Assembly: GCA_963666055.2 (NCBI GenBank)
Contig: CAXWPH010000006.1
Location: forward strand, 32,001-96,000
Length of the DNA: 64,000 nucleotides
Direction: 5' to 3'
DNA from: Acidobacteriota bacterium
GTDB taxonomy: Bacteria > Acidobacteriota > UBA890 > WLXD01
The number at the start of each line of letters is the position of its first letter. The stretch's first letter is position 1. The position numbers and the translations under genes were made by a program. The notes below the pieces were generated by a model. It made no database searches. It worked only from the letters and a program-made list of their open reading frames with translations, and was not told the DNA's origin. Positions 3,802-24,374 of this stretch are shown piece by piece.

Positions 3802-4890
3802 ATGATGGAGGCGCTCAAGAACTTCATCAACATGCTCTTCCAGCCGTACTTCGCGGTCACGTTGGTTGCCGCGGGCGTGTTGCTGCTGTACCGCTTTCGG
3901 TACCAGGCGACAAAAAACAAGTGGATCGCCGGCAGCATCCTCGCCTCACCGTTGGTGTTCTTCGGGCTCTCGGCGCTGGATGAGAACTTCTGGATCCAGT
4001 TCAAGCGTCCCGACAACCTGCCAATCTCGGGGATGGTGTTCCTGGTCCTCTTCTTCACGTGGTTCGCACTGAAGAAGGCAGTAGCCAACGACGAGCGCAT
4101 CAAGGACGGTCGGCCACCGTATGAGGGCGAGGAGGAGGAAGAGGAGAAGGTCTTCGTGTGGCCGGACCTGGTCTACGCGGAGTTCATGTGCGTGCTGCTG
4201 GTGAGCATTCTGCTGGTGGTATGGTCGATCCTGGTGCCGGCGCCCCTCGAGGAACCCGCCAACCCGCAGCTGACGCCGAATCCCTCCAAGGCGCCGTGGT
4301 ACTTCCTCGGGCTACAGGAGATGCTCGTCTACTTCGATCCGTGGCTGGCGGGGGTGGTCATCCCGACGTTCATCCTCATCGGGCTGATGGCGATCCCGTA
4401 CATGGATCCGAATCCCAAGGGCAACGGCTATTACACCTTCGAGGAGCGCCGCTCCGAAATCGTGTTGTTCCAGCTTGGCTTCATCGTTCTGTGGGTGTTC
4501 CTGATCTTCCAGGGTACGTTCCTGCGCGGACCCAACTGGAACTTCTATGGCCCCTACGAGGTCTGGGACGCGCACAAGCTCGTTCCGCTGGCCAATATCC
4601 AGCTATCCGAGTTCGTCTGGGCACGCGGGTTGGGAATCGGGCTCCCCAGCTTCTGGCTGGTGCGCGAGTCCGTCGGCATCATTCTGCTGCTGCTGTACTT
4701 CATCGCGCTGCCGGCCTGGGCCGCCAGCAGATGGATGCGGAAGTATTTTGACCAGATGGGGATGATGCGGTACGTGATCTTCACCCAGCTGCTCCTGTGG
4801 ATGTTCCTGATCCCGATCAAGATGTATCTGCGCTGGACCGTGAACTTGAAGTACTTCGTCGCGATTCCGGAGTTTTTCTTCAATATCTAG
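3802..4890 (+). CDS. Cytochrome b C-terminal / subunit IV-like protein with extra TM helices
   Basis: VWPDLV, APLEEPANP, PSKAPWYFLGLQE (PEWY-region equivalent). Confidence 0.88.
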   Translation: MMEALKNFINMLFQPYFAVTLVAAGVLLLYRFRYQATKNKWIAGSILASPLVFFGLSALDENFWIQFKRPDNLPISGMVFLVLFFTWFALKKAVANDERIKDGRPPYEGEEEEEEKVFVWPDLVYAEFMCVLLVSILLVVWSILVPAPLEEPANPQLTPNPSKAPWYFLGLQEMLVYFDPWLAGVVIPTFILIGLMAIPYMDPNPKGNGYYTFEERRSEIVLFQLGFIVLWVFLIFQGTFLRGPNWNFYGPYEVWDAHKLVPLANIQLSEFVWARGLGIGLPSFWLVRESVGIILLLLYFIALPAWAASRWMRKYFDQMGMMRYVIFTQLLLWMFLIPIKMYLRWTVNLKYFVAIPEFFFNI

Positions 4891-10779: not shown

Positions 10780-11232
10780 ATGGATACCGCTCCCGACTGG
10801 GTTCGCTCCCTGCCGCTCATCAACGCCGGGCTCAACGCCACCTGTGCCGTGCTGCTGCTGAGCGGCTACCGGTTCATTCGCAGGCGACGTATCGGGGCGC
10901 ATCGTGCCTGTATGCTCGGCGCTTTCGTCAGCAGCCTGTTCTTCCTGACCGGCTACCTGACGCTTCACTACCACATCGGCATAACCCGCTTCGGGCACGA
11001 GGGAACGACCGTCCGCGCCCTCTTCATGACAATCCTGCTGACCCACACGGTTCTCGCGGTCGCCACCGCGCCCATGGTCCTGTGGACGTTGGCGCTCGCG
11101 CTCCGCGGGCGGTTCGCGCAACACGCCGCGCTAGCGCGCTGGACGCTGCCGATCTGGTTCTACGTCTCGGTGACCGGGATCGTCGTCTACGTGATGCTGT
11201 ATCACGTGCCGGGGGCAGCGGGTGGACCCTGA
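10780..11232 (+). CDS. DUF420 family membrane protein (oxidase assembly associated)
   Basis: LPLINAGLNA, HRACM, ILLTHTVLA, PIWFYVSVTG. Confidence 0.88.
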   Translation: MDTAPDWVRSLPLINAGLNATCAVLLLSGYRFIRRRRIGAHRACMLGAFVSSLFFLTGYLTLHYHIGITRFGHEGTTVRALFMTILLTHTVLAVATAPMVLWTLALALRGRFAQHAALARWTLPIWFYVSVTGIVVYVMLYHVPGAAGGP

Positions 11233-11504
11233 CGTGGCGGCAAATTTTCGCATAAGTCCTTTTATTCAAAGGAGGCGACGTCGAGAAGGCGCGACGCCGG
11301 AGATCCACTGACACCACTCTATGCCTTAGAGGGACCGAACTATTGAGTAGCGGCCAGGCAATCGGCCCAGCCAAAGAACAGACAAATAGGCCGCGGGCCC
11401 AGTCGCTGCCCTTGCGAACCGGCACGGGTCCTGACCGCGATCATGCACAGATCACACCGCTCAGGATAACCTGACGACGTCGAGTTTCCGAGGAGTCCCT
11501 GCCG

Positions 11505-11523
11505 CCCCCCCCCCCCCCCCCCC
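11505..11523. repeat. 19-bp poly-C homopolymer
   Basis: Directly visible; may be a sequencing or assembly artefact. Confidence 0.9.
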
Positions 11524-11638
11524 AGCAGAGTTCGATCCGGACAACCACACCTCGCGGCGAGGGTTGCGCCCCAGCTTTCGCCCTCGGGTTCGCTCGGCAA
11601 ACTAGCCGTTCCATCATCGCATCAAGCCGAGAGTACAA

Positions 11639-13018
11639 ATGGAAACCCTGCAGGAAACGGCCGGCATTTGGTGGCTGCCGGATGCTCCGGATCGCTGCGT
11701 TCCGGGGCTCGTCAGCTTTTCGATCAACGACGGTTTCCGTCTACGATTACCGCTGGAAAATCTTGCGGAAGGCACAGCGCCGGACGCGGGCCCGTTCCAC
11801 GCGGACAGGTGCATTCACGGTCGGCTCCAAAACGGCAAGAAGGTCACGCTAGCGTCGCCCGACCGGGTAGCAAGTTACGTCGGCGTCCCCGGTGAAGAGT
11901 ACATGTGCGATGTGGGCTTTCTCGGCAAAGTCAACTGTTCGGCGGATCCCCAGATCGACCTGGCGAGAATCTCATACACCAACCTGAGAGAGTGGGCAGC
12001 TGAACATCCCCTGGACGTAACGTTCCACGAGGACCGCGCAGGTAGCCTCGGCCGTGTTGAGTACGAATACGAAGGGCTGCCCGCTCGGAAATTGGCAGCG
12101 GGCGGCGAATGGTCCATCGAGATCTGCCACACAACGACGCTTCCGGTGCCGAGCCCAGCAGGCGCTAACATTCGGCATGACTGCTACCTAGAAATTACCT
12201 TCGATCCGCCACGGGGTCTCTCTGACGCCGACGATCAACTGCACGGGCCACTGTGGCAGTTCGTTTCGTTCGCAATTGACAAACCTGTGGCCTGCAAGAG
12301 CCTCAAAGTCCGAGAAGCGCAAACGGGCGCATGGCTTGAGGTCAGGAGAGCTCAGTCAGAGATCCGGGAGGAGCGTGCAACGCCACTTGCCGCGATGATG
12401 CTCTTGCCGCTGCCGTCGTGCCTCGACCGGCAACCACGCCTCCTGGAGACGTGGCTCCACTTCCGAGGGGATCTTCGCCGAGCCGCTTCTCTGCTCTTTG
12501 GCTTGGGCAGGGAAGAACTGCTCATAGACTTGCGATTCCTGGCTGCCGTACAGGCCTTTGAAGCCATGGCACGGTCGATCGCAGATGAGTTCGAACTTGA
12601 GCAAGAGGAGTTCGCGAGGCGCCTAAGCGTAGTAGAACGGGCCCTTGGGGACGACAATAGGATCAGGCGGTGGGCCAAGCGAAAGCTCCAGCATGCCAAT
12701 CGAAAATCCGCAGACCATCTAGCACGCGAACTCTTGCGTTTCGTCGGAATATACGCGACCAAGCTAGTGCCGAGTGCAGACCGCTTCCTGAAGCAGATTC
12801 GTGAGAATCGAAACTTCTACACCCATCGCGATAGTCGTGGGAAGGAAGTCGTCCTTGAAGGCATTCCACACCACTTGCTCACGGAAGCCGTTATCTGTCT
12901 GCTCAAGGCAAGTCTCGTGCGCCACCTCGGATTCGGGCCGGAGGAGACAGCCGCCATTCTCGCCGATTGCCCGAAAGTTCAGCAGACTACGCGACGCGTC
13001 GCCGCGGAGTATCTATAG
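11639..13018 (+). CDS. ApeA-like protein: ApeA N-terminal domain + HEPN RNase (putative anti-phage)
   Basis: N-terminal GIWWLPD..VPGLVSF and IHGRLQNGKKVTL; C-terminal RFLAAVQAFEA and RNFYTH (RxxxxH HEPN motif). Confidence 0.82.
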   Translation: METLQETAGIWWLPDAPDRCVPGLVSFSINDGFRLRLPLENLAEGTAPDAGPFHADRCIHGRLQNGKKVTLASPDRVASYVGVPGEEYMCDVGFLGKVNCSADPQIDLARISYTNLREWAAEHPLDVTFHEDRAGSLGRVEYEYEGLPARKLAAGGEWSIEICHTTTLPVPSPAGANIRHDCYLEITFDPPRGLSDADDQLHGPLWQFVSFAIDKPVACKSLKVREAQTGAWLEVRRAQSEIREERATPLAAMMLLPLPSCLDRQPRLLETWLHFRGDLRRAASLLFGLGREELLIDLRFLAAVQAFEAMARSIADEFELEQEEFARRLSVVERALGDDNRIRRWAKRKLQHANRKSADHLARELLRFVGIYATKLVPSADRFLKQIRENRNFYTHRDSRGKEVVLEGIPHHLLTEAVICLLKASLVRHLGFGPEETAAILADCPKVQQTTRRVAAEYL

Positions 13019-13573
13019 ACCCGACCGAAGGAGCCCGCACTACGCTGCACGATGAGACCAGGGATCGAGGCACCATGGTCCAAGCTGCCGATCCCGGACC
13101 TGATCCCGCCACGCTGCGCCATCAGCACCATCTTCCGCACCGATCGATGTCGGCCTGCCACCGTGCCCAGTTACCACGATCGATTGCCACTGCCCTGCGT
13201 TCTCGGACAGCCCGAGCGACGCGCTGAAGCGTACCTCGTTGACGAACGGCCTGATCCCCGAAAACGGACACAGATGTAATCTCACGATCTGGGTCGATGA
13301 CGCCACCCAGAAATCGGCACCAGTCAGAGGTTTAGGATTCGATGTTCCGAAGCCTCCGGGTGCCAGCCCGTGGCGAGGCGCTGTTGTCGTACTGACTCAC
13401 GAGGGACCATTCGAGCTTCTCGCCGGTGTAGTGATCAACAGGTCCGTGACGCGGCACGCGGACGACGCGCCGCGGTCAGCTGCTGGCGCTTGATGCTTAT
13501 CAAGGCCCCCTCTTCAGAGGTACACACCAGCTAGCCTGGTGCTGTGCTGTCCACCGAGAGAGGAGGCCTCGAT

Positions 13574-14620
13574 ATGCGCTTCTACACTCAGCAACATCAG
13601 TATTACTGCGGCATCGATCTTCACACCAGAGTGATGTACGTCTGCGTGCTCGATGCCGCGGGCGACAAGCTCGTGCACCGCAACATTCCGGCCCGGGCAG
13701 CGCCGCTGCTGAAGCTGCTCGAGCCCTACCGCCCCGACGTCGTTGTCGGCGTGGAGTGCATGTTCACCTGGTACTGGATCGCCGATCTGTGCGAGGCGCA
13801 AGAGTTGCCGTTCGTACTCGGCCACGCCCTCTACATGAAGGCGGTCCATGGCGGCAAGGCGAAGAACGATCGGATCGACTCGCTGCAAATCGCCTCCATC
13901 CTCCGCGGCGGCAACTTCCCGCAGGCGTACGTATACCCACGGGCCATGCGCTCCACCCGTGATCTGCTGCGGCGCCGTACCCACTTCGTACGCAAGCGCG
14001 CTGAGCTACTCAGCCACATCCGCAACACCAACTCCCAGTACAACCTCCCCGACCTGACCCGCTCCCTGGCCCCCAAGGCCAACCGCGCCGATGTCGCCGA
14101 GCGGTTCGCCGATCCCTCCGTGGCTGCCAGTGTCCAACTGGACCTGGAGCTCATCGACACCTACGACCGGCTGATCACCGCCGTGGAGTTGAAGCTCATG
14201 CGCGCCGCCAAGCGCCACGACGCCAACGGAGTGCATCGGCTGCGCTCCATTCCCGGCGTCGGTAAGGTGCTGTCGCTGACCATCCTGTACGAGATCGGCG
14301 ACATCGGCCGCTTCGACCGCGTGCAGCAGTTCGCCTCGTACTGTCGCCTGGTGAAGCCGCAGCGCTCCTCGGCTGGCAAGCTCCAGGGTCATGCCAACTC
14401 CAAGATCGGCAACCCGCACCTGAAGTGGGCGTTCTCCGAGGCCGCCATCACCTTCATCCGCCACTGCCCCCAAGGGCGCCGGCTGTACGAGCGACTCGTC
14501 CGCAAGCACGGCAAGGGCAAGGGCAAGGCGCTCTCGGTGCTCGCTCACAAGCTCGCTCGAGCCGCCTACTTCATGCTCCGCAGACAGCAGACCTTCGACA
14601 TCGACAGGCTCGTGGCCTGA
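13574..14620 (+). CDS. IS110-family DEDD transposase/recombinase
   Basis: AGGAGG RBS; CGIDLH, VGVEC, KNDRID, SIPGVG, SSAGK, GNPHLK. Confidence 0.95.
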   Translation: MRFYTQQHQYYCGIDLHTRVMYVCVLDAAGDKLVHRNIPARAAPLLKLLEPYRPDVVVGVECMFTWYWIADLCEAQELPFVLGHALYMKAVHGGKAKNDRIDSLQIASILRGGNFPQAYVYPRAMRSTRDLLRRRTHFVRKRAELLSHIRNTNSQYNLPDLTRSLAPKANRADVAERFADPSVAASVQLDLELIDTYDRLITAVELKLMRAAKRHDANGVHRLRSIPGVGKVLSLTILYEIGDIGRFDRVQQFASYCRLVKPQRSSAGKLQGHANSKIGNPHLKWAFSEAAITFIRHCPQGRRLYERLVRKHGKGKGKALSVLAHKLARAAYFMLRRQQTFDIDRLVA

Positions 14621-14624
14621 TGGT

Positions 14625-15060
14625 AGGGCGGCGGGTGAGCCAGACGTCTAACGGGACGATCAGGGCCCAACCGACCAAGGTATGGTATCCATTCGGTGGC
14701 ACCGACCACGAACCCGACCGTACCGCGGTGACCGTGCCCGGAGCCCGCGCGCTTGATGGGACGCCCGCCGTCGCTGCCGCTACGCCAGATCCGTGGCGCT
14801 CTGCCCCTCACCCGAGCCTGCGCCTAACTGGAGAGTCGTCGCTGGCGGCTCATCCCTGCTCTTGAAGAGGCCGGCACGAGGGTACCGATTAGTTTCTAGG
14901 CCCGCGGGCGGTGCCGCCCGCTCCCGGCGTATCGTCGGGTGAGCCTCGATAGGTGTTGGGTGCAGACGCCTCTGCACCAGATCTTGAAACGAAGTCGGAG
15001 CCGGCGGATCTCGATGCAATCCAACCGCGGTAATCCTTCCGCGCTAGGACCGACTGTGCC
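14625..15060 (+). ncRNA. Putative bridge/seek RNA of the IS110 element
   Basis: Non-coding end with segments matching the left flank (GCGCTTGATG 14749-14758), the reverse complement of the right flank (CGCCTAAC 14821-14828) and the element end (ATAGGTG 14949-14955); RNA ends are approximate. Confidence 0.6.
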
Positions 15061-15086
15061 CTTGACCACCAGGGGCCTTATAGGTG

Positions 15087-15381
15087 TTAGGCGGCTGTTA
15101 ATGGCCGCCCCTGGTGAGGCGCGATCGACGTCATCGCCAGCACCTAGACCAACCACTTTCTGATACGGCCCTTGGTCGACACGGACGGACGTGATCCGAA
15201 ATAACTCCATCGACTCGGTGTTGCTCCCGAGGCGAAACGCATTCGACCTAGATTTGAAGAGCCGCGCCGTAGTGATCTTGTAAAACTCCGGCTTGATCAC
15301 CCTACCGAAAGGGTTTGTTAGCACAGAATTCGAACCGCGCCAGAGTGTCTTTTCCTTCGGCTTCTTGGAGAACAGACCCAT
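15087..15381 (-). pseudogene. Truncated bacterial PH-domain (bPH_2-like) gene
   Basis: GGAGG RBS; YKITTARL..MELFRITSVRVDQGPYQKVVGLG pattern, then similarity is lost and the frame runs into the IS end. Confidence 0.55.
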
Positions 15382-15465
15382 GGACTACCTCCGCTTGAGG
15401 TTAGATCATGAGCATACGGACAAGCGGCCGCAGGGTGGCGGTCGGCTGCCCCGGCCAGATTACTG

Positions 15466-16695
15466 CTAGCTCACACCCTCGACCACAAACTCAAAAAGGT
15501 CCGCCTTCGACGTGCGCTTACGTATCGTCCGATAGGTTACTTGGTGGAATCCCGCCTCCCCGAAGATCGACACAAGCGCCTTTTCAGTCTCCACTAAGTG
15601 TCCGTAGAACGTGGAATTCCCCACTACGTAGTGAAACCTTCCTTTCGGAGCCATTACCGATCTGAGCGCCTGAGCATGGCGCCACATGTCAGAAAAGTAA
15701 CGCAGAACGTACGTCGACATTGCGGTTGCGCTCGGGACATCCTCCCTGCCGATCCGTTTCGCCACACTGCTGATCGTCGCAGGGACGAAGACATCGTGCG
15801 GGACAACCCAATCCGTCAGCCGAGACGTAGCCGCTCCCCACGTACCCCCGATCGCGTTCCAGTCAAGAACCCCGGCATCTGAAGGAGAGACCAAGTACCC
15901 CAACCAGTACATGAACGGTCGTAGCTCCCGAATCAATGACACACGATTAGGGTAGGGTGGAGACGTCGCAACGACGTCGATCGAGCCTCGATCGACGATG
16001 TCAAGCGTACGCGCGTCGCCAGTGCTCGTGGTTGGAGTGCGCTCAGGATTAACTGCCGCCGTCTCGAGAACGAAGCGCATGGCGTCCCCAAAGGGATCTT
16101 CCTCAAGCGGAAGCGACTCTTGGGCTGGTCCGTCGAACTGAAATGATAGCGACTGGTGCCGCGGTGTCAGGTTGGCCAGCTCGCCGACCACTCTGCAAAA
16201 GCCGACTAGCAAAAGGTCCCGGGCCTTGGCACCACACGGGGCGTTGGCGATGCCCGTCTTTGTCTTTCTAAGAAATAGGAGACGCTCGGGAGTCCACCAA
16301 CGCTCGATATTGTGGACGGGCGGCGCGCAGACCAGCGGCCGGCTGACCGCGCTATTCGTGACGATCGCGTCCATCACCTCGCGCGCCTCGCTCAGATCTT
16401 CGGAAGTGTACGTCGCGCACTTGGCTCGCGTGAGCCAGGACATGAACGGATTAATGTCAAGGCTTACTGCGTGTAGTCCCCGCGTGGCCGCGGCAAGCGC
16501 TGTCGTGCCGGTCCCCCCGAAAGGATCCAGAACAGTCGCATCAGCGGTTGTTTCTGCGAGCAGCTCTTCCGCAAGCGTTACTGAATACGCTGGCGCTACA
16601 CGGAGCCACCCGTGACGCCCCTTTTTCCTGTTATGACGCGATGTGTACTCCGGTCGCAACGTCAGCGGGGCAGGCAGGTTTCCTCGGCGTGGCAT
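15466..16695 (-). CDS. DNA methyltransferase, probably N4-cytosine, motif I before motif IV; no cognate endonuclease seen
   Basis: VLDPFGGTGTT (SAM binding), DINP, TSPPY (catalytic), YVVGNS. Confidence 0.88.
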   Translation of the reverse strand: MPRRGNLPAPLTLRPEYTSRHNRKKGRHGWLRVAPAYSVTLAEELLAETTADATVLDPFGGTGTTALAAATRGLHAVSLDINPFMSWLTRAKCATYTSEDLSEAREVMDAIVTNSAVSRPLVCAPPVHNIERWWTPERLLFLRKTKTGIANAPCGAKARDLLLVGFCRVVGELANLTPRHQSLSFQFDGPAQESLPLEEDPFGDAMRFVLETAAVNPERTPTTSTGDARTLDIVDRGSIDVVATSPPYPNRVSLIRELRPFMYWLGYLVSPSDAGVLDWNAIGGTWGAATSRLTDWVVPHDVFVPATISSVAKRIGREDVPSATAMSTYVLRYFSDMWRHAQALRSVMAPKGRFHYVVGNSTFYGHLVETEKALVSIFGEAGFHQVTYRTIRKRTSKADLFEFVVEGVS

Positions 16696-16709
16696 ATGCG
16701 TGTGCAGCT

Positions 16710-17438
16710 CTATATGGGCCTGCGGAGGCTTTTCATCTCCGCCAGCTGGGCCTTCACCCTGGCAAGTTCTCTGCGGCAGCCTCGTAGCGTCAGTCCATCA
16801 TCTTCAACAACGATTGTCGGCTGAGTCCCGGTCTCGAGTTGAAATACAGCGACAGCCTCGCTGAACCCCTTTGATCGGAACTCACCGATCGGCTGCCAAC
16901 GAGTGTGTGTTCTAGACGCCTCGCGGAACGCCGCTGAACAGAGAACGGCGCCAGCAACGCATTGCCCCATCAGCCGGGCGCACCGATCGACCACAGCGCC
17001 GTGAGGATCCTGCATGTGGAGTCCGGGTGAGGCGTCGGTGCCCTCGGACTCCGCCTGTCCGAAATCCAGAAGACTCACCGCGCCGTAGTCCATGGCGATC
17101 TTTACCCGGAACCGCTCCTCTTCGATCTCCTCACAGAAGCTCAACACTCGCTCAGCGGCCTGTTCGGCCGACAACACGGCGGCATTGCCGTCAAATGTCG
17201 CCATGACTTCGTCGCCAATGTACTTCACTACGCGCCCCGACGACTCTATTATCCGTGTCACTCCAAGCAGGAACTTAGCCAACCTCGGTAGCCATTCTTC
17301 TTCATTCGGGTGCTCCGTCTTGAACTCCGTGGATCCAGCTAGGTCCACGAACATCACCGCGAGCGTCTTCTGAGACCTGAGACTTTCAAGGTCCTCACTG
17401 ACGCGCTTAGCGAGCCTGACAATCTCCTGGAGTTCCAT
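16710..17438 (-). CDS. Class III adenylate/guanylate-type nucleotide cyclase, soluble single domain
   Basis: VMFVDLAGSTE, VVKYIGDEVMA, GAVVDRCARL, KGFSEAV; ATG at 17438 lies 1 bp after the upstream stop. Confidence 0.85.
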   Translation of the reverse strand: MELQEIVRLAKRVSEDLESLRSQKTLAVMFVDLAGSTEFKTEHPNEEEWLPRLAKFLLGVTRIIESSGRVVKYIGDEVMATFDGNAAVLSAEQAAERVLSFCEEIEEERFRVKIAMDYGAVSLLDFGQAESEGTDASPGLHMQDPHGAVVDRCARLMGQCVAGAVLCSAAFREASRTHTRWQPIGEFRSKGFSEAVAVFQLETGTQPTIVVEDDGLTLRGCRRELARVKAQLAEMKSLRRPI

Positions 17439-17439
17439 G

Positions 17440-19917
17440 CTATCGAACGGTGCTCCTGTGCTTGTTGGTCGCCTTTTTGAGGGCGTCGAGAAGCAACTTC
17501 TCCAGGTCAATCTGCGCCGCGAGTATTCGAGCCTTGCCGATCGCGTCCCGCACGCTTCCTGGAATGAATAGCCGCACAGTCCGAGAGAGGTTGTGGAACT
17601 CTTTCTTCAACGTCTCGATGAAAGGCGACCTGACGCTCCGAGTTGGATGCCCGTCGAGCGCGAGGTCGGCGACGAACACCGCGCCTATTTCCTGGTCGAG
17701 TGGCCGGCCGGGAATGTCCAGGAGCACGACTAGTTCATCTGCTTCGGGAGCATCCCGTAGGTCGGGGAAGATAGTGACCAAGTGTTCCGACAAGTACGTT
17801 GAAACCGCCGCTCGCTCCGTGTCGGACAAATCCTGCAGTAAGCTTACTATCTGCTGTCGTCGCTCTTCGTCGGTCGTTCCCTCCGCTCCCCAAGGTGCTC
17901 GCAAGCTCAAGAGTCTCTTGAACAGTCCTGCCCGCCTCGTTACGAGATCGCGCAGAATCGACGCCGCGCCGAAGGCTTCTTCGTAGCTCCTGTCCAGGTA
18001 GTCAAGGGCAGCCGCCTCGGTGAATGCCTGCGCCTCGTCAACGTACGTCTTAAGGCTCAGAGTTCCCTTATCTTTCAGGCACCGCAACACGTGCGTCACC
18101 ATCGCGCCTAGCGCCCGGTTGGTATGGTGCCAGTAGACTTGTCGGAAGTTCCAATACCTTGCCAGCAGGAGACTCTCGACGGCAGACAAGGCTTCCGGCC
18201 GAAAGCAGATGTGCCAGTTTTCGTCGCCGTCTCCGGGCTGCATCATGACGTCCGCCGCCGACAACAAAGTGCGCCTATCCACCCCCCGTCCAAAGGGAAC
18301 CCCAGTAGCTCGCGCGTCGCCCTGCACGTAGCACAGCTTGTCGATGTCAACACCGCTATCGAGGCTGGACCGGATTACTTGTTCTCGACCATCAGTCAGA
18401 TCGCGGTGGTCAGTAGTCAAGAGATCGATGATGATCGCCGGATCGGCGCCGGCGTTGTAGATGACGTCAGCTATGGTGGGGGAGCCTGTGCCGCCCGCGG
18501 GGACTTCGCTAATGAACAATCTGAAGAGGTTCAGCGGCTCGCCCGACGCGAGGTCTAGCTCCTGGCAGTAGTGTAGGAACGGAAAGTGATTGACATCGTG
18601 GAGTAGTGCACAGAGCAGGAATTTGGTCACGTCCAGCGTGTCGAACAGCCGTGTAAATCGCGGCGACCGAACGAAGCACTGAACGAGTTCGACAGCGGTC
18701 GAATACACCATCAGACTATGGTCGAATCGCGTCTGAGTCGCGCTGGGATACACAAAGTCCAGGAGGCTGAGCTGCTTGAGTTGCTGTAGCCGGCGGAAGC
18801 TCCGTGTCTCGATGATCCGCTCCACGAAGTCAGGCGCCAGGAACGCGGCCTCGCCGAGCGCAATTCGTCGCACTGGCTGCCCTGGGGCTAGCTGAGGCGC
18901 GTGTGGAGTGGCTGCGCCGGCCCAAAAGCCGGACTCCAGCTTGCGAATCTGCCCAAGTACTTCGCTCGTCCGCAGGGTGCTAGCCTGCGCCCAGGTCACG
19001 AGGGCCTGGGCGTGGAGGGTCAGGACCTCCCTATCCAACTCAGTGATGAGCGATGGCAACGGAGAGTCCTCGAGTAGTTCCTCAAACAACTTGCCAAGGT
19101 GATATAGGTCTAGACCTGGAAAGAGGAGGTCGCGAAGCGCTTCACGGGGGACAGCTTTAGGATCCTCGGCGAGGATGGGCTTGAGCAATTCTTCAAGCTC
19201 AGCCGGGGCATTGAGCAGCCTGAGCGGCCTTACACGGGTGGTCGGTACGCTTTCGATCAACGCGCTGTCAAAGGCCTGCGCATAGCCGAAGTCGATAAGT
19301 ACGGGCCTTCCCGAGGACGTTTCGATCAGCACGTTGTCGGATCGGAGGTCCGAATGCTGATGGAGCTTTGTCTCGTGGAGATAAGTGAGGGCCTCCAGTA
19401 TTTGAACAAGTACCGTGATGATCTTCGTCCGAATCGCGTCTCGTTCCGGAGAGGTGGCTTGGCTAGCTGACTCGTTCAGCTTGTTGATCCATTCAGAGAG
19501 AGAGTCGCCTTCGATATACCGCGTTACCAGAAACCTGACCTTGTCGTCCGCCGGCACGCGGAAGCCTGCCTCTTCGCCGAACACCACAATCGCATCTGAG
19601 ACCTCACCCCACCCAAGCACTCGTTGGATACCTGGATGATCGAGATCTCTCAGCGCGGCACGCTCCCTGTTGTATGCAAGTTCGTCGCCCTTATCCCAAA
19701 ACGACTGAGCGGTCGTGTCAAATAGGAAGAGCTCGTCGGGAATCAGGTAGAACTTGACGGCCACCGCCACCTGCTCATCGTCAAGGTCCTTGGCCAGATA
19801 GACGACGCCAGAAGAGCCAGAGCCGACCAGGGTTTCTACGCGGTACTCGTCACCGACATTTGTCTTAATTGTGCCGATTGGGACCCGAGGGCCGCTCCGT
19901 TCGTCCGCTTTCCCCAT
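17440..19917 (-). CDS. Ser/Thr protein kinase fused to SAMHD1-like HD dNTP triphosphohydrolase domain
   Basis: Kinase: GSGSSG, VAVK, HSDLRSDN, DFG, APAE, DLYHLG. HD: FRRLQQLKQL, VYPSATQTRFDHSL, ALLHDVNHFPFLH, DIDKLCY, ARYWNFRQVYWH. GGAGAG RBS. Confidence 0.88.
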   Translation of the reverse strand: MGKADERSGPRVPIGTIKTNVGDEYRVETLVGSGSSGVVYLAKDLDDEQVAVAVKFYLIPDELFLFDTTAQSFWDKGDELAYNRERAALRDLDHPGIQRVLGWGEVSDAIVVFGEEAGFRVPADDKVRFLVTRYIEGDSLSEWINKLNESASQATSPERDAIRTKIITVLVQILEALTYLHETKLHQHSDLRSDNVLIETSSGRPVLIDFGYAQAFDSALIESVPTTRVRPLRLLNAPAELEELLKPILAEDPKAVPREALRDLLFPGLDLYHLGKLFEELLEDSPLPSLITELDREVLTLHAQALVTWAQASTLRTSEVLGQIRKLESGFWAGAATPHAPQLAPGQPVRRIALGEAAFLAPDFVERIIETRSFRRLQQLKQLSLLDFVYPSATQTRFDHSLMVYSTAVELVQCFVRSPRFTRLFDTLDVTKFLLCALLHDVNHFPFLHYCQELDLASGEPLNLFRLFISEVPAGGTGSPTIADVIYNAGADPAIIIDLLTTDHRDLTDGREQVIRSSLDSGVDIDKLCYVQGDARATGVPFGRGVDRRTLLSAADVMMQPGDGDENWHICFRPEALSAVESLLLARYWNFRQVYWHHTNRALGAMVTHVLRCLKDKGTLSLKTYVDEAQAFTEAAALDYLDRSYEEAFGAASILRDLVTRRAGLFKRLLSLRAPWGAEGTTDEERRQQIVSLLQDLSDTERAAVSTYLSEHLVTIFPDLRDAPEADELVVLLDIPGRPLDQEIGAVFVADLALDGHPTRSVRSPFIETLKKEFHNLSRTVRLFIPGSVRDAIGKARILAAQIDLEKLLLDALKKATNKHRSTVR

Positions 19918-20643
19918 TTAGCTCTCCAACGCCCAGGGTGGGGTGGGCACGATCGGAACGTAGGCAACCAAGAGGCTTGCCGAACGGCGGAATTGAACGA
20001 GTGCTCGCCGGCGGCCAGAAGTCACAATAACCCTATCGAGCTTTTCTCGTGTTCGCCACGGCTTGACCTCCGCTACGCGGAGAGATCGAAGCCCAGCTTC
20101 GATACGAATCACACGACCCGTTCGGCGGCGATCAAGGTTGCCCAGGTGGAACATGTTGGCCGCGGCTTGTCGCGATCATCCTCTCCTCCGCACCCGCATC
20201 GCTTGAAGAACTACCTTTGAGCTGCCGCGGCGCCGTTGTGGGGCAGCCACTGTCAATCAGGTTAGCCTTGCGTTCTTCCAGGTTAACAACAGCAATCGGG
20301 GACAGCGGCAGTTTCCGATGGCGGCGTGCGAAAAGAATCGTCTTTCAGGGCACCCTCGAGCGCCCATGATAGCTTGGCAAAAGGTACTCCTAATCCCGCG
20401 CTGATTCCCCGAATCCGGAACGCGCGCGTTTGCGGCCTCTACTGAGGAGTACCTGGCTACCCCCTTTTTCCGTAACCGTCCGGGAAGTTCCCTGTCGTGG
20501 GGAAGACCGAGATTCGAATCGCTCGCGCATGACTCAAGCGTGACTCTCGTCAACCGTATCGGCGAAAACCTGTAGTAGATGGGCGGTTCCCCGCCGGGGT
20601 CGTGTGATTGCCAGTCAGATAGCCTCACCTTCTCCAACTTCTG

Positions 20644-20692
20644 TTGGATCTCGCCCGCTCCGGCGATAGGCTTCACGCGCTCACCCACCCCT
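20644..20692 (+). repeat. Copy 1 of ~49-bp imperfect direct repeat with promoter-like boxes
   Basis: TTGGAT-17-TAGGCT..GCTCACCCACCCCT; second copy at 22500-22548. Confidence 0.7.
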
Positions 20693-20705
20693 TTGTGGAC
20701 GCGCC

Positions 20706-20879
20706 ATGGAACCCGGCACCAAACTAGGCCCCTACGAAGTCACCGAGCAGCTCGGTGCAGGCGGCATGGGGCAGGAGATTGAAGCCAAATTCGAGCGGCT
20801 TTTTCAAAGCGTGAAGGAAAAGGTGCGAGAAGAAGCTAGCGATTCATTGTCGGCGGATAGCCCAACGCCATTTCGATGA
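20706..20879 (+). pseudogene. N-terminal remnant of a Hanks-type Ser/Thr kinase gene
   Basis: Manual translation MEPGTKLGPYEVTEQLGAGGMG, then unrelated sequence and a stop after 57 codons. Confidence 0.75.
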
Positions 20880-21747
20880 ACATACTTATTTCAACGATGC
20901 TCCCAACAAAGCGTACGGTGTGGTTATCGATACGCTCCACGTTTGGGAGATAAGCAATCATTTCCGCCGCCTTGTCGTTCTTATATGTCATATCGAGAGC
21001 AAGCGGGCCTTCGATTCTGAAAGGTTCAAGCTGCCGCCGACGGCTCAGCCCGGCCTTGACTTTTTCCTTGATCAGAGCTCGTGCAGCCCCCGGCATCAGG
21101 GTGCGTCCCGAAGTGTGACTGTAGTGCCACTTGACGACGGCTCCCTCAATAGGACCCAGCATGTCGGACACTTCGCGTACCGCGGCATCGTCGCCGCTGA
21201 TCATCACCACCGGAACCCCGAAGTGACCGGCAATCAGTGCGTTCATGCCGCCTTCGGTCATTTCCATGTCGTTTATTTTTACGGATAGCAAGTCGCCGCC
21301 GGATATCGTATGCGCGGCAATACCGTCGATATTGCCCGCACTCGCATGGTAACCAATAAGAATTGCGGCACTGAAACTCTCGTCAATTCCCTCCATCATC
21401 CCGAGCGGTCTCGGCCAGGCACGAACGAGTTCGATGTCCTGCGGCAGCGCATTCAGCAAGAGATTCAGGCCGTTTCCGTGCGAATCGCTAACCAGAATCT
21501 CGCTAGCACCTGCATCGCGTGCGGCCTCAATGGCGGCGTTGATTTCCGCAGTCATCAATTCGCGGAACTGGCTGTACTCGAATCCTCCCGGTGAAAGTTG
21601 GTTCCCGGCGACGACTCCGGCTATGCCTTCCATGTCTGCAGATATGTAGACTTTCAGCTCCTGAGCAATTGCGCCGTTAGCCATTAGCAGCAAGAAAAAC
21701 AGGAACAAGAGCTCGCGAATACCACGATTGTGCCTTCCCAAATTCAT
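20836..21747 (-). CDS. Secreted M55 family D-aminopeptidase (DppA-like)
   Basis: Signal peptide; KVYISADMEG, SDSHG, IGYHA, AHT, ISGDD; start uncertain. Confidence 0.9.
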   Translation of the reverse strand: MNLGRHNRGIRELLFLFFLLLMANGAIAQELKVYISADMEGIAGVVAGNQLSPGGFEYSQFRELMTAEINAAIEAARDAGASEILVSDSHGNGLNLLLNALPQDIELVRAWPRPLGMMEGIDESFSAAILIGYHASAGNIDGIAAHTISGGDLLSVKINDMEMTEGGMNALIAGHFGVPVVMISGDDAAVREVSDMLGPIEGAVVKWHYSHTSGRTLMPGAARALIKEKVKAGLSRRRQLEPFRIEGPLALDMTYKNDKAAEMIAYLPNVERIDNHTVRFVGSIVEISMFIEMALGYPPTMNR

Positions 21748-21862
21748 TTGGCGCTTCCCATGTTTGGTTCTCGGATCGGTCATCTTGCTAACTCCCAGGC
21801 CCATTCCTCGTCGTGGGCAGGGTTCGATCTGACATGGACGAACGCCTCCCTCGGTGAGGCCG

Positions 21863-22312
21863 CTACTGTCCTTCGACAGCGTGCAACTCGATCCACAACT
21901 CCGCAATCTTGCCGTTTTCGATGCGCGTTAAGTCGATTCCCTCGTAGGTTGCCTGCTCTCCAGACTCCCCGACCCCGATCAAGATCCAATGGAACGCAAC
22001 CAAGTTTCCGTCCGCCACAACATTGTCGTGTTTGAAATCCATGCTCTTCGGAAAGGCCCTTTGATCTGACAGGGCGATTTGTCTTGCCTTCTCACGCCCT
22101 GTGACATCTGGGGACCCATAATGAATAACGGGATTGGCCGTGAAGATCTCATCGATCAATGCCAGATTCTTCCCCTGAATGACCTCCATGTGGAAACGAT
22201 GCGCCAGAGCCTTGTTCTTCTCTAGCGCTTCCGCGCTCTGCGCAAATGCCAAAGCACTGTGCGCGACAACAGCTACGACCGCTACAACCGCTACGGTGAC
22301 TGCTCTTTTCAT
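21863..22312 (-). CDS. Secreted SnoaL-like / ester cyclase (NTF2 fold) protein
   Basis: GGAGGAG RBS; signal peptide; NKALAHRF, VVADGNLVA, RIENGKIAELW. Confidence 0.85.
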   Translation of the reverse strand: MKRAVTVAVVAVVAVVAHSALAFAQSAEALEKNKALAHRFHMEVIQGKNLALIDEIFTANPVIHYGSPDVTGREKARQIALSDQRAFPKSMDFKHDNVVADGNLVAFHWILIGVGESGEQATYEGIDLTRIENGKIAELWIELHAVEGQ

Positions 22313-22421
22313 CACCCTGTCTCCTCCAGCGTGTGCCGAAATTGTTACAACTCCTTTCTTGGTACCACGCGAATGAGTCTCTTGCCAGGTACCGTTACAT
22401 CCCGGTTGGCAACCGGATCGC

Positions 22422-22494
22422 CGGAGGAGCAACGCCGCAGACGGGCCCATTTCGCCGCCATCCTGCGGACAGATGGGCAACGATCAACTGCTAC
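22422..22494 (+). repeat. Fragment of MITE-like repeat (shared with 34415-34503)
   Basis: GGAGGAGCAACGCCGCAGACGG(G/A)CCCATTTCGCCGCCATCCT(G/C)CGGACA(G/A)ATGGGCA at both sites. Confidence 0.8.
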
Positions 22495-22499
22495 GTCCA

Positions 22500-22548
22500 T
22501 TGGATCCTGGCACGCTCTGACGATAGGCTTCAGGGCTCACCCACCCCT
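22500..22548 (+). repeat. Copy 2 of promoter-like direct repeat
   Basis: TTGGAT-18-TAGGCT..GCTCACCCACCCCT upstream of the amidohydrolase gene. Confidence 0.7.
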
Positions 22549-22606
22549 CGCTGGCCGCCGAGTTCGCCTCTGACCCCGAGCGTCTGGCCTGCGGCATGAC
22601 TACCCG

Positions 22607-24112
22607 ATGAGAGCTCCAACGACCACATCGTTCGCCCTAACCGTACTGATCGGACTTCAGGTGATCCTGGGCGGAGGCGCACTTCAGGGGCAAGCCGCTG
22701 CAGACACGGGGCTTCTGACACGGCCGGGTCAGGCGGTGGTGATTCGTGGCGGGTGGTTGTTCGATGGGGTCGCGGACACTCGCGTACAGAACGAAGGGCT
22801 CCTCATCCGGGGAGGGAAGTTCCTCGACGTCGACGGCGGCCTCGGCGGCTACGAGGTGCGGGGCGCGCTCGTCGTTGATCTAGACGACGAGGAGACGATC
22901 ATGCCGGGCATGTTCGATCTGCATGCCCATCACCGGCTCGGATTCGGCACGGACGACGCAGAGGAAACCCGATGGGTGCCCATGTTGCATCTGGCGAACG
23001 GCGTGACGTCCACGTTCCCTGCCGGCGAGCTCGATCCTGAAGGCATGATGGAGGCTCGCCGCCGGATCGAATCCGGGGAGCAGATCGGGGCCCGGATCTT
23101 CAACTCGGGACCCTATTTCGGCAACGCGCGCAATCAATGTCCAGAGGTTCGAACCTACCAGGACAGCTGTGCGCACTGGCCCGCTGATATGACGGACCAG
23201 CAGATCCGTGATCGTGTCGACGAGTGGGCGTTCCGTGGGATCAAGAGTATCAAGGCGAAGCAGGCGAGCCCGCGCGAGCTTGGGATCATCATCGACCAGG
23301 CGCACCGGCATGGGATTACGGTGACCGCGCACCTCCACAACTACGCCGGTCGGGGCACCGACGTCAGCGTGCGTGACGCAATTCTCATGGGCATCGATCG
23401 CGTGGAGCACTCATTCTTCGACCAGCATCTGATTCTGGCCGGCCAGATGGCGCCCGGGACATCGGAGTTCGAGGAGTGGTTACGTCTCTTCGTCGATCAC
23501 AACGTCTACTTCGACGGTACGAACTGGCTGTACGGCCGGGCCGTGATCGAAGCCGAGGTCGACTCCGGCGACCTGACGGAGGTCGATACGGACCGCTTCC
23601 TCACGCCCTATCTGCGGAGCTTGCGATCGGCGAGGGGGCCAAGGGGTGGCGCCGACTCCCAGCTCACCGAGCAAGAGCGGGAGTGGGACCGGATCAACGG
23701 CACCGATGGGTACACGACGGTTTTCCACAACAAGGCTCCGGCGTTGCTGAGGCTCTATGAGTTGGGTGGGGGGCATCTCATCACCACGGGGACGGACGAC
23801 TGGAGCGGTTTCAGCATCCACAACGAGTTGTTCGCCCTCGCCTATGTCGGTCTTCCGCTGCATGCCGTGCTGAAGGCCGCGACGATAAACGGGGCCAGCG
23901 CCCTGGGCGTCAGTGATGGGCTTGGAACGATCGAGACGGGTAAGATCGCGGACCTCTATGTTTTGCGAGGCAATCCCCTGGATGACATCCTCGCCACCCG
24001 GAACGGTCATCTGGTGATGAAGGCGGGACAGCTCTACGACGTAGAGACTCTCATCCGGGCAGCGGAGGGGAAAATAGGCCCGACCGGGCCGCGAGGCTCT
24101 CAGAGCCGGTAG
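22607..24112 (+). CDS. Secreted amidohydrolase family protein
   Basis: Signal peptide; MPGMFDLHAH, TAHL, VEHS, GTD, GTIETGKIADL. Confidence 0.9.
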   Translation: MRAPTTTSFALTVLIGLQVILGGGALQGQAAADTGLLTRPGQAVVIRGGWLFDGVADTRVQNEGLLIRGGKFLDVDGGLGGYEVRGALVVDLDDEETIMPGMFDLHAHHRLGFGTDDAEETRWVPMLHLANGVTSTFPAGELDPEGMMEARRRIESGEQIGARIFNSGPYFGNARNQCPEVRTYQDSCAHWPADMTDQQIRDRVDEWAFRGIKSIKAKQASPRELGIIIDQAHRHGITVTAHLHNYAGRGTDVSVRDAILMGIDRVEHSFFDQHLILAGQMAPGTSEFEEWLRLFVDHNVYFDGTNWLYGRAVIEAEVDSGDLTEVDTDRFLTPYLRSLRSARGPRGGADSQLTEQEREWDRINGTDGYTTVFHNKAPALLRLYELGGGHLITTGTDDWSGFSIHNELFALAYVGLPLHAVLKAATINGASALGVSDGLGTIETGKIADLYVLRGNPLDDILATRNGHLVMKAGQLYDVETLIRAAEGKIGPTGPRGSQSR

Positions 24113-24374
24113 TCTCGCACGTCGCCCCTTAGGATCCGTCGATCTTCCCGCTCAGGAGGCTGTCCCGGGAGCGTGATGCTGTCACGTACCGAGGACTGCC
24201 CCCGTAGTCGTCATCGATGATCCGAGTTACGCCGGCATCTACGGATTTCGAGGAGTCGGCGGTGTGCGTTTGTTGGCTATAGAGCTCTCCCCTGTTGATG
24301 CCGGCCCAACGTTCCGATTACCTTGCATGCCTACCGCGTAGACGCCTGGGTGCCCGCGTACGATGGAGGTTCGC

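Follow-up and report, generated by a model that had tools for sequence, protein, structure and literature searches.

What does a protein kinase fused to an HD domain do beside a nucleotide cyclase and a DNA methylase that lacks a nuclease? This question is raised by three genes at positions 15466 to 19917 of a 64,000-nucleotide stretch (hereafter the window) of contig CAXWPH010000006.1, from the Acidobacteriota bacterium assembly GCA_963666055.2. A first-pass annotation, made from the letters alone, had proposed a new defence system in which infection or inhibition of the methylase switches on depletion of deoxynucleoside triphosphates (dNTPs) by the HD domain. We followed up this proposal computationally and found that the gene set is real, conserved and unnamed, and probably defensive. 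Tentatively, we read the HD domain as a dNTP sensor that would drive a toxic kinase.

Conservation in the kinase-HD fusion family

The core gene is a single open reading frame (ORF) of 825 residues that matched Pkinase (9e-16) and HD_assoc_2 (3.5e-7) in Pfam, just as the first-pass annotation had described it. Its AlphaFold model, with a predicted local distance difference test score (pLDDT) of 84, matched two dNTP triphosphohydrolases, EF1143 of Enterococcus and the human antiviral enzyme SAMHD1 (Foldseek, 4lrl, 7e-13), and the SAMHD1/EF1143 fold spans the whole HD part. A word-based search returned 46 matches, and 150 were listed by a profile search against representatives at 50% identity, mostly of about 800 residues. 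ESM Atlas groups proteins with this pair of Pfam families into several clusters, which have 50-150 members and bear only automatic names. The kinase-HD fusion is a sizeable family without a name in Pfam, NCBIfam or PADLOC 2.0. Its occurrence is scattered over Acidobacteriota-like, Gemmatimonadota, SAR324, Actinomycetota and Nitrospirota records. The fusion was found in none of 25 class relatives of the host, and 400 genomes of the phylum gave six matches, two of them in frames long enough for a distant fusion. No homolog was found in the plasmids searched or in the viral contigs searched, the latter giving only five weak generic cyclase matches. Two kinase-HD proteins of about 900 residues from the same phylum (L184:1047-3755 and L185:1-2757) form a more distant branch, and one of them keeps an HE-type motif.

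We counted residue conservation in an alignment of 152 homologs of 700-1000 residues. The kinase residues were nearly invariant (K55 and E85 in 147 each, D190 and N195 in 151 each, D209 in all 152, and H188 also within the range of 147-152). The same was true of the dNTP pocket, with Q382 kept in 150, L383 and R397 in 151 each, and Y530, D534 and Y595 in all 152. In the window protein, the alignment indicated that Q382, L383, R397, K527, Y530, D534, R587 and Y595 of the pocket are kept; Gln149, Leu150, Arg164, His210, Lys312, 319, Arg366 and Tyr374 of SAMHD1 correspond to Q382, L383, R397, H444, K527, D534, R587 and Y595. The hydrolytic residues behaved differently. When mapped onto EF1143 at the sequence level, the window protein carries Q452 where SAMHD1 has Asp218 and lacks a His where the HE motif (His233) would lie, and it keeps H449. 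Gln occupies the Asp218 position in 69 of the 152 homologs, the window protein among them. The HE motif was present in 0 of 43 rows of the clade that carries the cyclase (the cyclase clade), 1 of 46 rows of its sister group and 13 of 89 other rows, some rows being duplicates. Basal members keep both HE and the guanine allosteric residues; in the window protein, the guanine allosteric site is altered relative to SAMHD1. Excerpts of PMC7311409 report that His233 of SAMHD1 serves the second metal and that Asp218 forms a relay with His215, that H233A lowers kcat about 300-fold and D218A about 40-fold with tetramers still forming, and which residues select deoxyribose and bind phosphate.

Metal ligands were changed in 12 of the 152 homologs, which belong to several branches; the five kinase residues are present in every one of these 12, and their pockets are almost complete. 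Changes of the kinase residues were rare (five, three of them in the single Glu85 column). Models of the dGTPase family scored the fusion far below their cut-offs (NF041026, 18.8 bits vs. 400; TIGR01353, 25.5 vs. 152), and no PADLOC dGTPase match was among the 25 matches listed. A fixed pocket and kinase with eroding hydrolytic chemistry is the pattern expected of a nucleotide sensor coupled to a kinase. The homologs with changed metal ligands are, as judged by their residues, candidates for natural SAMHD1 pseudo-enzymes: P0221, P0237, P0262, P0277, P0279, P0285, P0290, P0265, P0246, P0275, P0278 and P0288, all with kinase and dNTP pocket intact.

Nested architecture of the operon

Of 160 loci fetched, 34 held the fusion or part of it, and 26 remained after duplicates and short fragments were dropped. 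Across the family, the fusion mostly stands alone. The cyclase maps to one clade (178-row tree, FastTree support 1.0; SH-aLRT 98.5 on a 37-row subset). It was directly downstream of the fusion in all nine clade loci with downstream DNA (L001, L002, L081, L082, L085, L087, L089, L093 and L096); the clade locus L099 ends at the fusion gene and was not counted among the nine. Outside the clade, the cyclase was downstream in none of the 14 loci with at least 300 bp of downstream DNA (12 of which had at least 750 bp). Linkage was also assessed indirectly, by equal size of the longest contig; a partner was found among 43 short cyclases for 14 of 35 fusion proteins, and among 56 long cyclases for none. 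Fusion and cyclase distances were correlated (Spearman 0.82, 22 pairs, 0/2000 permutations), which is what co-inheritance would produce. Among ten cyclase loci, only the window and L081 (57%) showed the methylase directly, and two of the ten break off before the place where it would lie. The three-gene set is genuine and occurs more than once, but forms the innermost of three layers: the fusion, the fusion with the cyclase, and both with the methylase. The expectation that cyclase and methylase co-occur with the fusion was thus borne out for the cyclase within one clade, but not outside it or for the methylase. With an ATP-type cyclase gained first, in one clade, and a nuclease-less methylase later, this would represent a defence system built up step by step.

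The 242-residue cyclase is of class III, as first annotated. Its Pfam match to Guanylate_cyc (0.0027) is under the cut-off, its model matches class III cyclases at 1.7e-12, and the class III fold carries the two metal aspartates (D32 and D76). The protein also has K72 and D144 (ATP-specifying) and R155, and Asp151 replaces the transition-state Asn; an N-terminal helix and a C-terminal coiled-coil-like helix form its ends. K72 and D144 are invariant in 33 aligned homologs. Such a Lys-Asp pair is the ATP signature of class III cyclases, and some established cyclases are without the Asn, according to excerpts of PMC4886424. Given these enzymes, and since 110 of 116 homologs retain the DRxAR motif, in which Asp151 stands in place of the Asn, we set aside the idea that the Asn-to-Asp exchange marks a dead cyclase. 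A weak PycC profile match was obtained (1.2e-9 over 89 residues), and the top sequence match was 7r65, which we take to be a PycC and which has Ala at the K72 column. The PycC pocket is of the pyrimidine type and has no purine-reading Lys. Pfam and PADLOC scans of the operon gave no effector with a cyclic nucleotide monophosphate (cNMP)-binding, transmembrane or TIR domain. The specificity residues suggest that the cyclase is ATP-type and not PycC-like; this signature and the lack of a cNMP-binding partner argue against a Pycsar system. Since cyclase-bearing relatives and several cyclase-less ones have identical HD pocket signatures, what the cyclase makes is probably not what the HD domain binds.

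A second family of cyclases, 390-420 residues long (P0082-P0148), shares the DRCAR motif and has a coiled coil and a C-terminal domain that carries no annotation; it shows no sign of linkage to the fusion. We treated it as separate because none of these long cyclases matched the contig of any fusion protein by size. Members from cultured Bacillota (P0143, Paenibacillus oenotherae WP_219871052.1; P0146, Priestia megaterium WP_258357131.1) would make an easy test of the product of an Asp-for-Asn cyclase.

The methylase matched N6_N4_Mtase (7.7e-7) and has DPFGGTGTT before SPPY. Its family is large (4686 matches). In four of four genomes fetched, related methylases abut a nuclease that scores about 1e-75 on the restriction endonuclease model PDLC03512, and the window methylase is 45-46% identical to these methylases. 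Four queries for the partner nuclease gave no tblastn match in the host genome (95.7% complete) or in the first 160 loci fetched. The window methylase thus reads as a nuclease-less copy of a type II restriction-modification (R-M) enzyme, in line with the first-pass description of an SPPY methyltransferase without an endonuclease. Together with 11 relatives, it forms a clade of its own (support 1.0, 46-row tree). Seven of the 11 lie on a contig of the same size as a fusion or short cyclase, compared with 1 of 108 other methylases. The Tyr of SPPYxNRMSY is kept in 0 of 12 clade methylases vs. 108 of 108 others. Marking of self DNA, which the first-pass annotation had named as a known role of methylases, would here serve no restricting partner, and the otherwise invariant Tyr is lost as well. 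A loose Q-x-x-L-x-L stretch occurs in 64 of 114 methylases, a count with no control.

Genomic context of the fusion genes

The neighbours of several fusion genes are known from defence. Locus L082 holds a complete type I R-M system and an McrBC-like gene; L096 holds Vsr, DUF4420 and Z1; L066 and L119 hold Septu and McrBC. A type I R subunit (L147), Fic and IS91 (L081) and Cas1 (L091) were found at other loci. At E<=1e-25 and with the operon's own methylase excluded, 8 of 22 scanned loci had a PADLOC neighbour. For stand-alone HD genes, which served as the control, 3 of 14 loci had PADLOC matches (129 ORFs; 14 of 20 prepared loci), and all of these were DinG/RecQ/HerA-type helicases. A defence role of the fusion family is likely because relatives adjoin type I R-M, short prokaryotic Argonaute (pAgo) and Septu genes.

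Some loci were recorded in their own right. At L085:8664-16110, an integrase, the kinase-HD gene, the cyclase, TIR-APAZ and a short pAgo form one co-oriented row in an integrated element. Genes of nucleotide-handling or defence type beside the fusion are a nucleoside 2-deoxyribosyltransferase (L099:528-1022), a dGTPase (L003:2240-3841), and DUF3800 and ThiF (L095:541-1368 and 3978-4883). Next to a type II R-M pair, L173:4177-5334 encodes a protein of the HNH type that is similar to effector models of SAVED-HNH/CBASS.

A putative clamp-type motif in the kinase loop

In many relatives, the loop between beta3 and alphaC of the kinase, which is an insertion in the cyclase clade, holds a short motif of the sliding-clamp type. 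In this clade, 26 of 39 distinct loops had [LM]F at a distance of 6-16 residues behind the VAVK Lys, vs. 6.6 in shuffles. The corresponding counts were 11 of 41 (5.8 in shuffles) in the sister group and 10 of 83 (8.5) in the rest, and ordinary host kinases had 0 of 28. Gln was the commonest residue three before [LM]F in the clade loops. Strict QxxLF was found in 8 of 43 clade rows, 4 of 41 sister rows and 4 of 86 remaining rows, with 0.2-0.4 expected. The canonical forms QLSLF, QMNLF, QLDLF and QTSLF occur in the loops of relatives, and excerpts of PMC9690074 give QL(S/D)LF as the bacterial sliding-clamp consensus. The loop has a pLDDT of 54-58 in the window protein model. When kinase residues 12-332 were modelled together with the host sliding clamp, the score was 0.00, which counts neither for nor against binding. 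We regard the putative clamp motif as a lead, because the window copy is without the Gln and kin share motifs.

Proposed mechanism and alternatives

We favour, tentatively, an anti-phage module in which the HD domain is a dNTP sensor driving a toxic kinase. The trigger may be the dNTP surge, the imbalance or the modified dNTP of phage replication. The SAMHD1-derived domain would bind the dNTP as a sensor and hydrolyse it slowly or not at all, binding would switch on the attached Ser/Thr kinase, and the active kinase would arrest or kill the infected cell. A QxxLF-type loop beside helix alphaC could park the kinase on the replication sliding clamp. The ATP-type cyclase would be a co-inherited partner that acts as an output or amplifier of the kinase, through a flood of cyclic AMP (cAMP) or a drain of ATP. 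Because gain of the cyclase left the HD pocket unchanged, we place it as an output and not as the source of the HD ligand. The methylase would be a late accessory, either a decoy (bait) or a retuned methylase that extends the trigger to phage anti-restriction proteins, and this is the weakest step. Beyond the anatomy (gene order, conservation, fold, active sites and context), everything in this scheme is inferred, including the roles of the cyclase and methylase. The full combination of a clamp-riding immune kinase, a retired SAMHD1 domain as dNTP receptor, an Asp-for-Asn adenylate cyclase output and a disarmed methylase bait is unlikely. If true, it would mean that phosphorylation is used to survey the replication fork, and it would give anti-phage defence its first purine-cNMP arm. 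Sensing of dNTPs by a SAMHD1 pseudo-enzyme would be a novel means of detecting phage replication.

Several observations weigh against the sensor-kinase reading. The 12 losses of metal ligands all fall outside the window's clade and its sister group, and every row of these two groups retains all four primary metal ligands as well as H449, the general acid. The residue at 453 is acidic in 148 of 152 homologs, and E453 could stand in for His233 as a ligand. Given the intact ligands, H449 and the acidic 453, the domain may still be an active dNTPase. The window copy of the clamp motif has no Gln. No defence neighbour was found at the long-flanked loci L001, L002, L004, L031, L047 and L129. Furthermore, the test neighbours were hand-picked, unlike those of the controls, for which ORF calling was automatic; L066 is closely related to L119, and the dGTPase of L003 may have a housekeeping role.

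The proposal of the first-pass annotation was nucleotide depletion, with the HD domain as an active dNTP triphosphohydrolase and effector and the kinase (here also cAMP) as the switch triggered by infection. We rank it second and consider it rather unlikely. Defensive dGTPases provide a precedent (excerpts of bioRxiv 2021.04.26.441389), the SAMHD1/EF1143 fold covers the whole HD part, the window clade keeps the four metal ligands, H449 and the deoxyribose gate, and the basal members retain HE and the guanine allosteric residues. SAMHD1 is itself regulated by a kinase, which we counted in favour of this explanation. If bacteria have a phosphorylation-switched SAMHD1-like dNTPase, it would mirror the control of the human enzyme. 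It is opposed by the missing His233 equivalent and the Gln at the Asp218 position in the window clade, by the weak dGTPase model scores, and by the 12 homologs in which metal ligands were lost but the kinase was retained, a pattern rarely seen the other way round.

The constant position of the cyclase in its clade, 1 bp from the fusion here, and its co-inheritance would also suit a guard or toxin-antitoxin arrangement. In this case, a signal or binding by the cyclase would keep the kinase off, and removal of the signal by the phage, or an anti-restriction attack on the methylase decoy, would release it. Clade-specific residues near the fusion C-terminus (R790 and G794) could form an interface, and detection of signal loss has a precedent (PMC13640721). 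However, the fusion persists without any cyclase in all 14 assessable out-of-clade loci, which argues that it needs no antitoxin, and the operon holds no cNMP-binding domain. We consider this arrangement very unlikely. A role outside defence, as a mobile cassette for replication-stress or nucleotide-pool signalling or as an island addiction module, is quite unlikely. It would account for the many loci that lie between housekeeping genes, the peptidase and amidohydrolase cargo of the island, and the lack of homologs in the viral contigs and plasmids searched, but not for the repeated adjacency to R-M, pAgo, Septu and ApeA or for the rare occurrence scattered over the groups of records named above.

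Features of the locus and island

The three ORFs lie on the minus strand, and their lengths and gaps (1 bp between fusion and cyclase, 14 bp between cyclase and methylase) are exactly as first annotated; the sequence motifs reported with them (VAVK55, H440-D441 and SPPY245-248) are also present.

Table 1. Coordinates of the operon, its domains and the surrounding island in the window.
Feature	Position	Strand	Basis or details
Kinase-HD fusion, core gene, 825 aa (P0001)	17440..19917	-	ORF and Pfam
Kinase domain, ~residues 20-330	18928..19860	-	K55, E85, H188-S-D190, N195, D209-F-G; non-RD type
DELFLF, residues 61-66, beta3-alphaC loop; degenerate QxxLF-like copy, putative clamp binding	19720..19737	-	sequence
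SAMHD1/EF1143-like HD domain, ~residues 345-815	17473..18885	-	metal ligands H400, H440, D441, D526
Class III nucleotide cyclase, 242 aa (P0047)	16710..17438	-	ORF, Pfam and model
Amino-methyltransferase, 409 aa (P0302)	15466..16695	-	ORF and Pfam
Insertion, 13 kb, at 3' end of 150-aa gene 10780-11232	11215..24171	no strand	comparison with G019
ApeA N-terminal + HEPN gene; island neighbour outside module	11639..13018	+	PADLOC PDC-S58, 2.6e-38
IS110-family transposase; island neighbour	13544..14620	+	domain scan

The 13-kb stretch is an insertion here because at the orthologous site of G019, a genome of the same genus with about 94% identical DNA, window position 11214 joins 24172 directly. An imperfect direct repeat flanks it (about 11191-11207 and 24173-24187), in which the 3'-terminal part of the 10780-11232 gene is repeated. 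The GC content of the operon is 0.586-0.593 vs. 0.65-0.68 in three flanking core genes, and that of third codon positions (GC3) is 0.66-0.70 vs. 0.82-0.86. A lower-GC island beside an ApeA-HEPN gene and an insertion sequence, as first described, is thus present; besides these and the operon, it carries unrelated peptidase and amidohydrolase genes. Three public runs, from two studies, have single contigs that cover the whole operon and differ from it by 0-1 letters, which shows that it did not arise in assembly; the best of these runs may be the source sample. A promoter and terminator scan of the locus gave results at chance level, and no RNA dataset was listed as holding the operon.

Directly after the methylase, the start of a gene like those of bacterial PH domains (bPH_2, E 0.012) runs from window 15381 to about 15140 on the minus strand; the match ends after about 80 residues, and the gene looks truncated. 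A multi-copy stretch at 20643-20770 was considered as a cassette repeat and rejected, as it proved to be the 5' part of a Ser/Thr kinase gene of the host. The island contains a 5' remnant of such a gene (window 20707-20775, plus strand), with about 90 similar stretches in the genome, and the cargo genes around it occupy other positions in genomes of the same genus.

Comparison with known systems

No description of the fusion or the gene set was found in the literature searched; subscription papers, bioRxiv supplements and DefenseFinder models lay outside the search, and a recent naming could be missed. Excerpts of PMC13092281, PMC13069673, PMC7159879, PMC11090510 and PMC13276650 hold no mention of the gene set. 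In the portions of the supplements of PMC13092281 and PMC13069673 covered, there is no HD_assoc_2/PF19276 row except the dGTPase HD_assoc entry (2 of 3 occurrences seen). A 2026 review states, in the excerpt covered, that SAMHD1-like bacterial defence proteins may remain unidentified. The gene set is unlike dGTPase, Pycsar, BREX/MADS and type II R-M on the tested features, so the first-pass view that the combination is not a named system stands.

The fusion shares the HD fold, the metal-1 ligands, the general-acid His and the deoxyribose gate with SAMHD1/EF1143 (PDB 2o6i, 4lrl), but differs by its N-terminal Ser/Thr kinase, the missing His233 equivalent, the Gln at Asp218 and the altered guanine allosteric site. 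The anti-phage dGTPase (Tal et al., bioRxiv 2021.04.26.441389, excerpts) has the defence-island context in common with it, whereas the window fusion is far below the model cut-offs and is not a stand-alone HD protein. Pycsar also has a class III cyclase beside a putative effector, and a weak PycC profile match was obtained; however, the window cyclase keeps Lys/Asp where 7r65 has Ala, has Asp for Asn, and is partnered by a kinase-HD protein. BREX type 2/Pgl and MADS likewise combine a kinase and an amino-methylase in one operon, but the window locus is without PglZ, BrxC/PglY, a specificity subunit and a nuclease, and MAD6 scored 39 bits vs. a cut-off of 460. PglZ, BrxC/PglY and the MAD specificity and nuclease subunits were absent from the island ORF scans and from the relatives' neighbours. 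The methylase is related to that of the type II R-M pair of PDLC03512, but here the cognate nuclease is missing and the Tyr of NRMSY is lost. Stk2, PD-T4-6 and the HipA-like DS-6 share a eukaryote-like Ser/Thr kinase as the likely effector; their PADLOC matches cover only the generic kinase core (residues 19-222), and the sensor here would be a SAMHD1-like domain. By analogy, the system may be likened to a blend of Stk2-type kinase abortive infection (excerpts of PMC13276650) and SAMHD1/dGTPase nucleotide surveillance.

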